DNA of 64,000 nucleotides from Psilocybe cubensis (Eukaryota), in NCBI GenBank assembly GCA_017499595.2, contig CM038998.1, forward strand, positions 1,550,001-1,614,000, written 5' to 3'. Made by a program: the position numbers and the translations under genes. This document shows, in pieces, positions 53,376 through 58,400 of this stretch; the stretch's first letter is position 1; each line of letters opens with the position of its first letter. The notes below the pieces were generated by a model. That model did no database searches. It was not told the DNA's origin and saw only the letters and a list, made by a program, of their open reading frames with translations.

Positions 53376-54957
53376 TCAGTCCGATAAATCGTTAGAAGGG
53401 TCATCCAACAGACAGTCAGCATAGTCCTGCATCATTTAATTTAGCGAGAGTGAGTTACATGAAGGGTATCAAACTTACATCAAGGTTCACCTCTTGGGTG
53501 GTGACTGGAACTAAAGGGGGCACGGCACAAAGTACTTTCATCGGAGACTTTGCCCCAGAAAGGTGGGGATATGGTGCGACCGTGTGATTAGACGATGGAG
53601 GGTCAGCTTTGGTTTTTGTTGGACCACTCTTCTGAGGGGATGGCAATGCAGGCTTCCCCTTATTTGCTTTGTCTGGGGAACTGAACGACTGAACAGAACT
53701 AGAGGCGGGAGGAAACAGAGGCGAAATATGGAAAGGTGACGAGGTCTGATTTGTAGCCAATGTAGAGTGAGTGCAAGCTTTCAGTGAACTCTGGAGAGAA
53801 GCTCCTTTGCTCTTGATCGACTTTGAGGGTGTTGATGTCGTTGATGAAAGTTTTTGCATTTTGGCCGGAGATTCGGACAGGTCTGCATCATCTCCCTCTA
53901 CCATTTTATCGGGAGCTAAAACCGTCAACTTCGTGATAGGAGTGTGAGGATCACTGGGCATCTCCATTAACTTGCGCTGAAGTTGTTTTTCGATTGCTTC
54001 CCAAGGTCGTTCATCGACTCGAGGTTTGACAGCGCCTTGGTTTGCCATAAAATCTGCGCCATCATTACCAATATCTCCACTGTGCCCTTTGACGTATTCT
54101 AATACAACCTTCTGTCCCATTTTCCCTCGAAGATCAAGATGAGCCGAAATACAACGTATGATTCCGGCGTTTTTTACATCGCTACCCGTAGAGCTTTTCC
54201 AGTTATTGTTGCGCCATGTGTTGATCCAGGTTCGGAAGCCTTTTAAAGAGTGTAAGTGCTTGCTGATATGAAAAAGGACCAATGAACTGACACTGGATAG
54301 AATACTGGGAGTCTGTTCTAATCAACAAAGGTTTTTTCGTCTGGGGTGTACTTTCTAAAACGCGCAGTATTGCCTACAGAATGTTAATCGAAAGACACGA
54401 CATAAATGAGATAGACAAACTATTAATTCTGCGCGATTATTGGTCTGGTCACCTGGACAACGCTCTGCAATGTTTCTACAGAGAATTAACATAATCATAG
54501 ATGAATAATTGAATGTGTCCTTACCTTGGGTCGTTATGCCCCCACCATACACCCACACCTGCGTATGATCCTTCTTTACCGTTGCCTTTGCAAGCACCAT
54601 CACTATAAACAACATCCCAACCAGTGACATCGTCCACTTGTGGACCAAAGTCTAACTCTCGCTTTTTTGAAGTGGAATCGCCGGGAGCATGGCTTGTCGT
54701 GATATTGGAAGGACCCGCTTCTGCGTTGCTTGATGATGGTGAATCTTCCGATATAAAACCCTCTGCCTCTGCCAAAGTTGAAAACTTCTTATGTTCGGCT
54801 CCAGGGAATTCGTTTATCTGCGCTTTACACTCAGGCCTAGCTAAGCAATGAGTATCATTAACATCAATAAAAATGAGCTTACTAACCAGGTTTTGTATAT
54901 CCCTGGTATTCTTCCTTTTCGTACAGCATAGTACCCTCCAATGCCTTTGGGTGCCAT
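53376..54957 (-). CDS. RNH1: Ribonuclease H1 (hybrid-binding domain + RNase H domain + low-complexity C-tail)
   Basis: GYYAVRKGRIPGIYKTW (HBD), VYSDGACKGNG, QTNNRAEL, TDSQY, YVKGHSGDIGNDGAD catalytic D/E/D/D. Confidence 0.93.
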
Positions 54958-55185
54958 CTTTAAGGAATGTTTGATCAAAGATTTAGTAACGACCGGCAAA
55001 TGGATGCGTAGTAAGACAGATGGGTATATACGCCTTCTCAGCGAGAGAATTCGTAGAAATCTGTCCAGTTTCGTGGGTTCGAGGTGAAGCGAGCAAGTTG
55101 AAGTAGGGTTGAACGTTGAACCGCTGAATAGTGGTTGGTGGTTGAAGATCAACTACACGATGTAAGTAATTATTAATTAAAATAT

Positions 55186-55223
55186 TCACGTGACGTGACA
55201 GACGCGACAAGAAATGGCGCGTC
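55186..55223. promoter_or_regulatory. E-box plus CGCG motifs upstream of RNase H1
   Basis: TCACGTGA 55186-55193, then gacgcgac and ggcgcgtc. Confidence 0.35.
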
Positions 55224-55489
55224 TATACATACGCTTAGGAAGTCCAGGCGGCGGGACCAAGATACAGAGACGAGTTTCAGGTAGAAAATTGTGAGTGGTA
55301 TGGTACAATATATACATGGCACGGATGTGCGCAATTTCTTTAAGACAAGAAGGTTGGTAATTATATAAATACTCAGGATCTAGTATCATAAAGGACATGC
55401 CATCAAACTTTTTATATGCGACGATCGTCGACGTCCTACACAAGGAACACCCTCATGGGACAATAAATTGGATAACAGAACATGATCGA

Positions 55490-58400
55490 TCAACTGTCTC
55501 CAAACATAATTTTGAGGTTTTGGATGCTTTCTGGATCAGCTTTCCCACTTCCTCGAAATGCTTCGTTAACAATCGCCGTTTTACGTTTCTGGATTTGTAA
55601 GATGCGGTTCTCGATAGTTTTTGACACCTATGCGATGTGTGAGGTCTTCGAAAATGAGATGAAGGCAGTATACGGCATACGATAAAGTGTTTTACATATA
55701 CTGTTTTGTTTTGTCCTATTCTGTGCACGCGGTCGATAGCTGACAACGTTTGTTGTGTGCATTGTTCACTACAAGGTGCAAACATGCACTAACCTTGATT
55801 TTCCGTGGCGGAGTTCCACCAACAATCCATCTAGCAAATATCAGAATTATTCTTCCAGGATCAAGCAATATTTTCGTACCATGAACACATAATTTGCATT
55901 TGTGAGCTATAATTGAATCAAAACGACGATGAAGACAGATCATATAGTAAAAAACCCACATTCAGCCCAACGCCACCAGCTTTGAGACTAACCACCAAAA
56001 CTTTTGGTTTGCGAGAGAAGGATTTGAACTCATTGACTGCGGCGCTCTTCTTCTTCACATCCATCGTTCCATCAAAGCGGTACTGATCAAACCTTTCTCT
56101 TTCTAATGCGACCTGGATAAGGTCGAGGAAGCTTGTAAATTGTGAGAAAACTACAGCTCTGAAGCATGGGTCTTGCTCCCTTAGTTGCCCTGTAGTATCA
56201 ATCACTCAGAAAAACGGGATATCAAATGTAAAAATTTCCCTTACTCAGATTCCGGACCAGAGCGTCGAGTTTTGTTGAAGTTTGAAAGTCGTTCTTTCTC
56301 AACATAACCGGCGTATCAGAAGACTGTGAACTTGACATCCCCTGGTTCTTGCCTTTCTTCACAATCTCTACCAAGTCGGTGCTCTATGCAAAATTGGTTT
56401 AGACAAATATGGCTCGTTCAAAGGGAGATATACCTTTATGGGCCCTTCTGAGCAGGTTGGGCAGTTAGCGACTTGCCGCTTCTCCTCACAGATACCAATG
56501 TACGATACAATGCAATCTTTGCAACTATAAACACTCTTATTAGTGCAAATTGTCTTCGAAGTACTTGTAGACATACAACTGGTGCATACAACGCGGAATG
56601 ACCATCGGGATTTCCATCTCGTTGAAGCAGATAGGGCATTCGGCAAGATCGTTGCCACTAAGGTTTGTAACGAAATGTTCAACGAATGCACTCGAATTGC
56701 CATCTCCTGCTTGCTCGCCATCCGCAAACTTTTCAATGAGTTCGTTGATTGTGACCTTTTTGCCACCATCCTGTGGAAACGTGGAGTGTTCTTCATCTTC
56801 TTTGCCAAGGACAAGGCTAGGATGAAGCACTGCTCTCCGCAACCTAGCACATAAAATTAGAGGGGCAATAATTTAACTTCTACAATTTCAGTACCTCATA
56901 AGCATTGCCAAAATGTGAGTGTAATTTTTGCTGACCAACCCTTTCGCATCAAGGCGCTCAAAGTCCTTCTTGGCAGAAAGATATATGGAGTCGTAAATCT
57001 TTCTTTCCAACGGCGAAAATTCGAGCTCTTCGACAATTACCTTCCATTTTGATCAGTCAAACAACATTTAAAAAACACATAACAGCATTACCTCTTTAGG
57101 TGGCAACTCTACAATCATCTTTCCATCCTGATCCCGCATATTCTTCTCTCTTCGTAAAAGAATACTTTCGAGAATGACCTGTACAACCTCGATTGCCTTT
57201 GGGTCGCGAGACAGAAAGGGAATTGTAATGAATCTAGAAAACATGATCCCCAAGTAGTGCAATCAAATGAAAGGACTACTCACGAACGGAAAAATGAAAA
57301 CTCCGACCATGGTTTAAAGTCAAGGAATTTCCTGGCGACAAAACCATGAGCACAAGTACTGGAGAAGAAACTTCACACCCACAGCAACGAAAAAAGATCT
57401 TCTAGTTTGTTTACGATGGGTGTCCCTAGAAACCGACAAAAGTCCTTCAGTTGTATAGAATTGGGGGAAGAAAAGGTACCTGTAACGGCCCATCTCCGTT
57501 TAGCATTAAGTGCATAAACAGCTTTTGCTGTTTTACTTGTCCTCGATTTACATGCATGTGCCTCATCGAGGATTATCCTCAGCCAACAGACTAAAAGCCA
57601 TAAACACACTTTTGCTGTATCGGGATCAAAGTTACTCACTTTCGAAGATCGGCGATTTGACTTTACTGGAGCGATCCATTTTTGCGTGCTCAGAGGCAAG
57701 AACTCCGTAAGAAGTCACAACTACTTTGATAACATTGCCGCGATCGTCTTCGTCACATTCCAAAAGGTCCTCGAGGTCCTGTCGATTTTGTCCATGCCAG
57801 ACTATGACTTGCATTCTACCAGGTTTACATGATCGTTGAAGTTCTTCCGACCACTGAGTGAGTAGTGATGTAGGGGCAACTACTAATGTGGCAGACGCTG
57901 GTTGAGATGTTTGTTGTTTCCTTTGATTGACTGTACGGAAGGCGCTGTTCAATTTCAGCTGTTTTGATTTTACTACCTGTGCAGGTTGTTCTGGTTCTTC
58001 TAAAGGAGGACTTGACTGAATAAGCGCTGATAGCATTATTGTTTTTCCCATTCCCACTTCGCAAAGGATGAACTAAGAATTGCGTATTTGTGAAAAGAAG
58101 AAATTCAAACTTACTTTCTACATAAGGGTAAAAATCCGTAGTGTGAAATATGTGAACATCGCCTCACCGTCTCTAAAGGACATCAGTTTGGGGTCAATGA
58201 AATAAAACGATGCTTACGCCAAAATGCCGCCTTGACAATTTCTTTCAGCCCTAGGGAAGTCCAATCTCAATTCACCTGAATATGGATTGAAATAAAAAGG
58301 CTTTTCTTCGGCGGTAAGATCTATCGTCTCGCCGTCCATAATTGGCTCTCCTGGAAAGGCATATCTAATGCAGACATTAACGACAAGTTCGATTCACAGT

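Follow-up and report, generated by a model that had tools for sequence, protein, structure and literature searches.

The window analysed here, a stretch of 64,000 nucleotides of the Psilocybe cubensis contig CM038998.1, carries on its minus strand a gene whose product is identical to the annotated Ribonuclease H1 of this species (P0001, 443 residues; ATG at 54957). The gene has six coding exons (Table 1), and all five of its introns are confirmed by spliced contigs. The hybrid-binding domain (PF01693) is matched on exon 1 (E 2.6e-4) and on exon 2 (E 1.1e-8), as well as on the annotated P0001, and the RNase H domain (PF00075), which spans exons 2 to 5, is matched on exon 5 (E 3.2e-9). Furthermore, D103 and D236 are invariant in an alignment of nine RNase H1 proteins, and P0001 contains the motifs SDGA, NNRAEL, TDSQY and NDGAD, which we take to be the site of the catalytic residues. 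The gene is a eukaryotic RNase H1, i.e. a type 1 RNase H with an N-terminal hybrid-binding domain. The named fungal RNase H1 proteins all begin at this domain (9 of 9), without a presequence, and the AUG at 54957 is presumably the start of a short form of the enzyme, which would be nuclear.

At its other end, the protein carries an acidic motif, VN.D.YADCLL.D.DL..ELSD, which constitutes the conserved C-terminus of Agaricales RNase H1 and follows a long and variable Ser/Pro-rich tail. We saw it in exon 6 of P. cubensis and in P0010, P0012, P0013, P0014, P0032 and P0038. The yeast and human enzymes are not known to carry such a tail.

Table 1. Coordinates of the features in and around the 5' part and the coding exons of the P. 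cubensis RNase H1 gene (positions of the window).
Feature	Position	Strand	Basis and remarks
Exon 6, coding part: conserved acidic C-terminus	53376..53425	-	Protein comparison, splice joint; TGA stop at 53378-53376
Exon 5: end of RNase H domain and long Ser/Pro-rich tail	53478..54239	-	Gene model, Pfam, splice joints
Exon 4: RNase H domain	54292..54373	-	Gene model, splice joints
Exon 3: RNase H domain	54421..54475	-	Gene model, splice joints
Exon 2: second half of hybrid-binding domain, linker, start of RNase H domain	54525..54836	-	Gene model, Pfam, splice joints
Exon 1, coding part: first half of hybrid-binding domain	54887..54957	-	PF01693, splice joint, gene model
Annotated AUG	54955..54957	-	Context AAGATGG; conserved core of the hybrid-binding domain (YYAV...) begins 8 codons later
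N-terminal extension after the CUG, 36 codons; proposed mitochondrial presequence	54958..55065	-	Translation; basic, Leu/Ser-rich, one acidic residue
Transcribed leader	54958..55134	-	Spliced RNA contigs and codon scan; no ATG in any frame, no in-frame stop
Proposed CUG start codon	55066..55068	-	Context ACGAAACTGGACA (AAACTGG), A at -3, G at +4
Alternative in-frame near-cognate ACG	55072..55074	-	Two codons above the CUG; poor context, C at -3, A at +4
In-frame TAG bounding the open stretch	55153..55155	-	Upstream of the 5'-most RNA contig end
AT-rich, TATA-like run	55167..55186	-	Upstream of the 5' end of the X1 contig by 33 to 52 bases
Palindrome TCACGTGA	55193-55186	-	Directly precedes the AT-rich run; both lie within the 155-base gap between the transcripts of the two genes

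The extent of the transcript was read from public sequencing data. Five public runs cover the stretch. Two of them, X1 and X2, which come from one study, are recorded only as guessed RNA, and we took them as RNA because their contigs carry spliced joints. Indeed, each gave one contig of about 1.6 kb with all five GT-AG joints of the RNase H1 gene, and two DNA runs span the region without joints or indels. The 5' ends of the RNA contigs lie at 55134 (X1) and 55109 (X2), i.e. 66 and 41 bases beyond the CTG at 55068; as contigs of a single study, they define a minimum 5' extent and not a mapped cap site. Since the spliced contigs reach these positions, the RNase H1 mRNA contains the CTG. The earlier note on this DNA had proposed that codon as the start of a mitochondrial isoform on a transcript beginning above it, and this minimum extent bears out the transcript part of the proposal. 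An additional upstream exon was considered and rejected, because neither contig has a further joint or a loose end 5' of the leader.

Between 55135 and 55290, no RNA contig of X1 or X2 was matched. The upstream neighbour lies on the same strand at about 55490-56900, with its gene end near 55490. It encodes a helicase C-terminal domain (PF00271) and has a spliced intron at ~55626-55678; its contigs stop at 55291 and 55298, which leaves about 160 bases up to the RNase H1 transcript start. Judged by its letters, the AT-rich run at 55186-55167 is presumed to be the core promoter of RNase H1, and its position would fit a transcript start near 55134.

The frame above the annotated ATG was described earlier as open and free of upstream ATG codons, with an in-frame CTG having A at -3 and G at +4, and each of these points was confirmed on the minus-strand sequence. 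The open frame comprises 65 codons and is bounded upstream by the TAG at 55155-55153. The nearest minus-strand ATG is found at 55230-55228, leaving 272 bases free of ATG in all frames. This distant ATG is excluded as a start, because the TAG intervenes between it and the gene and the RNA contigs stop short of it. In the leader, ATG aside, no in-frame codon but the CTG at 55068 combines a purine at -3 with a G at +4; when all frames are considered, the only other near-cognate in such a context is an out-of-frame AAG. The predicted RNA structure of the leader is not significant (z -1.14), and we attach no weight to a predicted hairpin that begins directly after the CUG.

We carried out a chance test with shuffles of the 177-base leader seen in RNA. 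An in-frame stop was lacking in 6.8% of the shuffles and an ATG in 11.7%, and 3.1% contained an in-frame CTG or GTG codon with A at -3 and G at +4. The three features occurred jointly in 0.035% of the shuffles, this joint test having been picked after seeing the data. Each of the features of the window is weak when taken singly, and the weight of the argument lies with the transcript and with the relatives.

To obtain these relatives, nine Agaricomycete RNase H1 proteins were aligned and the alignment was used to scan metagenome contigs; 325 pattern matches yielded 146 confirmed loci, the best 80 of which were retained. A hybrid-binding motif with an AUG just before it was present in 67 of these 80 loci, and the other 13, without the motif, were left out. 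Together with the window, the 67 loci fell into 42 clusters (threshold, 12-mer overlap >0.3 around the start), and, because the clusters are related to one another, the tests given below overstate independence. The other two frames of the same upstream DNA served as control.

The earlier description of an open frame turned out to apply to the orthologous 5' regions as well. An uninterrupted in-frame stretch of at least 30 codons is present in 38 of the 42 clusters, against 15 and 19 of 42 for the control frames (Fisher 3.6e-8), and it is rich in Arg, Leu and Ser and poor in acidic residues. Over the 40 codons upstream, frame 0 contains 282 Arg+Lys, 46 Asp+Glu and 14 stops in 1640 codons, whereas the corresponding figures in the control frames are 141, 102 and 51 and 177, 82 and 65, in 1600 codons. 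The upstream net charge is +5.8 in frame 0 versus +1.0 and +2.4 (Wilcoxon 2.7e-6 and 2.5e-5, 40 clusters), and frame 0 has the highest net charge of the three in 30 of these 40 clusters. When pairs at least 75% identical were compared, 13 of the 15 gaps were divisible by three, and the remaining two sum to six. Substitutions between relatives are distributed 139/102/152 over the three codon positions, with no clear third-position bias. The open frame, the charge and the in-frame gaps therefore argue that the extension is kept as coding sequence of a presequence-like nature, in which the exact residues are little constrained. In L024/L025, a stop breaks the frame 17 codons above the AUG, and the sister cluster L003 has 53 open codons and an optimal GTG; the stop may mean that the long form has been lost, that the locus is a paralogue, or that the sequence contains an error.

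The types of start codon found above the hybrid-binding domain were then compared. Among the best 80 of the 146 loci, an in-frame AUG lies 32 to 58 codons above the main AUG in 16 of the 42 clusters and is absent from the other 26. Exactly one in-frame A-NN-[C/G]TG-G at -21 to -40 codons occurs in 16 of these 26 AUG-less clusters, the window included. The same pattern is found in 0 of 26 in both control frames, and shuffles give 1.4 on average, with 0 of 1000 reaching 16. The near-cognate codon pointed out in the earlier note is thus a conserved one, carried as a CUG or GUG in optimal context by most of the clusters devoid of an upstream AUG. These 16 codons comprise 10 CTG and 6 GTG, and the codon that follows is GCN in 14 of them and GAT or GAC in L032 and in the window. 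The strict pattern is absent from the 10 other AUG-less clusters: three (L030, L038 and L041) show it in relaxed form, where G or C replaces the A at -3, and no pattern in any form was found in L004, L024, L031 (where the contig end cuts it), L034, L046, L056 and L077. L046 and L056, which are intronless frames of ~240 residues without extension, probably come from other organisms.

The region between the near-cognate codon and the AUG is strongly depleted of ATG, with 2 in 1656 bases (both in L003) versus 18.6 in shuffles, i.e. about ninefold, and a count this low was reached in 0 of 2000 shuffles. In the clusters which do have an upstream AUG, it has T at -3 in 12 of 16 and G at +4 in none, whereas in 37 of the 42 clusters a purine precedes the downstream AUG at -3. 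The contexts of the two AUGs are reciprocal, so that a start which is always weak lies upstream of a strong one. The extensions themselves, 21 to 58 residues long and rich in Arg, Leu, Ser and Pro, are alike whether they are started by CUG/GUG or by AUG (Arg 15-16%, Leu 11-15%, Ser 9-11%, Asp+Glu 2-3%). Frame, codon context, absence of ATG and peptide composition are all conserved in the family.

Two observations were made along the way. In L017, L076, L023, L045 (~124 bases above the AUG) and L067 (130 bases), which form one lineage, an out-of-frame ATG is kept at an equivalent place inside the AUG-started extension; a short overlapping frame may begin there and tune the two starts. The related loci L040 and L077 have the extension core TTLK.FKATRVALRVAK in common; L040 has two in-frame upstream AUGs, whereas L077 offers only a CTG flanked by A at both -3 and +4. 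From the sequences, the start type seems to have been switched recently.

Could the P. cubensis extension be translated from another near-cognate codon than the CUG? The candidates are ACG 55074, ACG 55116, ATT 55050 and CTG 55041. The first of these lies inside both RNA contigs, the second inside the X1 contig only, and the yeast enzyme Rnh1 (see below) does use an ACG. However, all four candidates have a pyrimidine at -3 and lack a G at +4, and the pattern seen in the family is specific for CTG or GTG flanked by A at -3 and G at +4. Moreover, L032, the only locus with which the P. cubensis extension could be aligned, has the same CTG and flanks as the window, the alignment being confined to the surroundings of the start codon (~15 of 18 bases match, counted by eye). 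We consider initiation at one of these other codons unlikely, and retain the CUG at 55068 as the start of the extension.

From the CTG onward, the 37 codons read LDRFLRILSLRRRIYPSVLLRIHLPVVTKSLIKHSLK. Their translation contains 6 Arg, 3 Lys, 1 Asp and no Glu, in agreement with the earlier count; the net charge is +8, and FLRIL forms a hydrophobic-x-x-hydrophobic-hydrophobic motif. Matrix presequences are rich in Arg, Leu, Ser and Pro and poor in acidic residues. The composition fits a presequence, as the earlier note suggested, and the helical hydrophobic moment of the peptide is not above that of its own shuffles: in P. cubensis it peaks at 0.51, against a shuffle mean of 0.68, and 91% of the shuffles are as high; family-wide, the excess over shuffles is small (mean z 0.25 and 0.50). 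Protein comparisons were uninformative on this point: an 88-residue query (upstream stretch and exon 1), compared with longer proteins, matched only the annotated protein, in its domain part, and the 103-residue open frame, compared with proteins of similar length, had no match, which says nothing on the extended form.

The lack of excess in hydrophobic moment would also fit an extension that is translated and selected for a job other than mitochondrial import, as another sorting signal, a degron or a peptide tuning the yield of the main form. Such a role seems to us improbable, since the make-up of the family extensions, in residues, acidic content and length, is that of matrix presequences, and since yeast RNase H1 becomes mitochondrial through an N-terminal extension and the mammalian enzyme through a second start on one mRNA. 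Slightly less credible still is an ordinary untranslated leader, a pyrimidine-rich 5' UTR that by chance is open in frame, lacks ATG and encodes a basic peptide: it would accommodate the singly mild shuffle frequencies of the window, a peptide amphiphilicity not above shuffles and the fact that no extended protein was matched in the protein collection, but it explains neither the ATG depletion and in-frame indels nor the frame-specific signals of the relatives, which base composition cannot yield, the controls being the two other frames of identical DNA.

A quick and rough tree of the two domains (51 rows, linker columns excluded) places the window in a clade with an SH-aLRT of 98, together with Pholiota, Flammula, Gymnopilus, Cyclocybe and Agrocybe proteins. 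This clade includes 9 clusters of the near-cognate type and 4 with an upstream AUG; outside it, L040 and L077 group with a Thelephora protein. By parsimony, at least 5 changes of start type are required on the tree, and the well-supported branches force fewer. Predicted proteins were also considered. The hybrid-binding motif was found in 113 of 180 proteins from the homology searches, within the first 15 residues in 84 and 16 to 90 residues in for 24, and in about 10 of those 24 an AUG starts a basic extension, and a second Met stands just ahead of the domain. The RNase H1 homologues P0104, P0115, P0123, P0151, P0156, P0163 and P0169 have short N-termini with Lys/Arg clusters (KRKR-type) before the hybrid-binding domain, which by their sequence look like nuclear signals rather than presequences.

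Taken together, the extent of the transcript and the orthologous 5' regions support the proposal of a dual-targeted RNase H1 made through a non-AUG start, and from them we infer initiation at the CUG 55068 and mitochondrial import in P. cubensis. We put at about 0.7 the probability that a longer P. cubensis RNase H1 is translated from this CUG and is mitochondrial. According to this model, one RNase H1 mRNA, starting near 55134, would give two proteins by leaky scanning. A minority of the scanning ribosomes would begin at the CUG 55068, which would be the sole efficient near-cognate in a good context in a leader otherwise free of AUG, and would produce a form with 37 extra N-terminal residues. 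This basic, Leu/Ser-rich and nearly acid-free extension would act as a mitochondrial presequence. Most ribosomes would scan on to the AUG at 54957, in its strong context, and produce the short form, beginning directly at the hybrid-binding domain, for use in the nucleus. The same two-start layout would hold across the RNase H1 genes of the Agaricomycetes, the upstream start being either an AUG in poor context or a CUG/GUG in optimal context, and the two would have been exchanged several times.

A broader reading, which we advance tentatively and to which we give somewhat less than even odds, joins these elements. The layout would combine an upstream start kept inefficient on purpose, a presequence, a spacer devoid of AUG and, at the hybrid-binding domain, a strong AUG, and it would be ancestral at least to the Agaricomycetes, and perhaps to fungi and animals. 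Selection would then act on the leakiness of the upstream start and not on its identity, so lineages would flip between a poor-context AUG and an optimal-context CUG/GUG, with the mitochondrial-to-nuclear ratio staying roughly constant. If this were true, RNase H1 would offer a natural series calibrating start-codon strength in mushrooms.

If the long form exists as proposed, the annotation of RNase H1 would have to be corrected in P. cubensis and in most of the Agaricales orthologues, and the supply of mitochondrial RNase H1 by one gene in these fungi would be explained. The exchange of AUG and CUG/GUG across the family is a more interesting by-product than the single isoform: it is an unusually clean case of start-codon turnover, where a poor-context AUG and an optimal-context CUG/GUG stand at the same place in related species. 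This pattern provides a test bed for fungal start-site prediction, as gene callers which require an AUG miss such mitochondrial isoforms.

How does this compare with known systems? Arabidopsis has separate RNase H1 genes for separate compartments, and in mammals the start choice of RNASEH1 is tuned by an upstream reading frame. This mammalian reading frame has a possible counterpart in one fungal lineage only. The P. cubensis gene otherwise resembles mammalian RNASEH1 in that the presequence lies between two starts, the second of them directly before the hybrid-binding domain. The mammalian two-AUG layout is also that of 16 of the 42 fungal clusters, whereas the upstream start of P. cubensis is a non-AUG codon. 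PMC11681198 states that the nuclear and mitochondrial forms of mammals are made from one mRNA under initiation control. In PMC8330923, Arabidopsis AtRNH1B is described as mitochondrial, and the likeness with the case proposed here is that RNase H1 activity is required inside mitochondria.

A parallel in the mode of initiation is provided by the LeuRS and ArgRS of Cryptococcus and by yeast ALA1 and GRS1, where a near-cognate codon in strong context stands above a presequence and a strong AUG lies downstream. According to PMC7049704, the mitochondrial LeuRS and ArgRS of Cryptococcus start at ACG or AUU, and weak AUG and near-cognate starts have repeatedly been exchanged in fungi, as we find among the RNase H1 clusters. 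These systems differ from ours in that they are tRNA synthetases, and in that initiation is backed there by ribosome profiling.

The closest precedent is the Rnh1 of S. cerevisiae. According to PMC6582344 and PMC11681198, its AUG form has no detectable presequence, and the enzyme enters mitochondria only as a form with a 21-codon extension, initiated at an upstream ACG; this ACG form was proposed in the former and confirmed by a split-GFP assay in the latter. Our literature search found no paper on a non-AUG RNase H1 isoform outside yeast, basidiomycetes included. The yeast precedent was absent from the earlier note, and it raises the prior of the P. cubensis proposal and lowers its novelty. 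The two cases differ in the codon and in the length of the extension, an ACG with 21 extra codons in yeast and an optimal-context CUG with 37 extra codons in P. cubensis, and also in the kind of evidence, since the yeast mitochondrial form was tested by reporters whereas that of P. cubensis is deduced from transcript and relatives. The likeness is nevertheless a close one. The enzyme is the same, the annotated AUG form is free of a presequence, an in-frame upstream near-cognate adds a short extension, and one mRNA serves two locations, as we propose for P. cubensis. The P. cubensis case would thus add to a known kind, that of dual-localised proteins made from upstream near-cognate starts.
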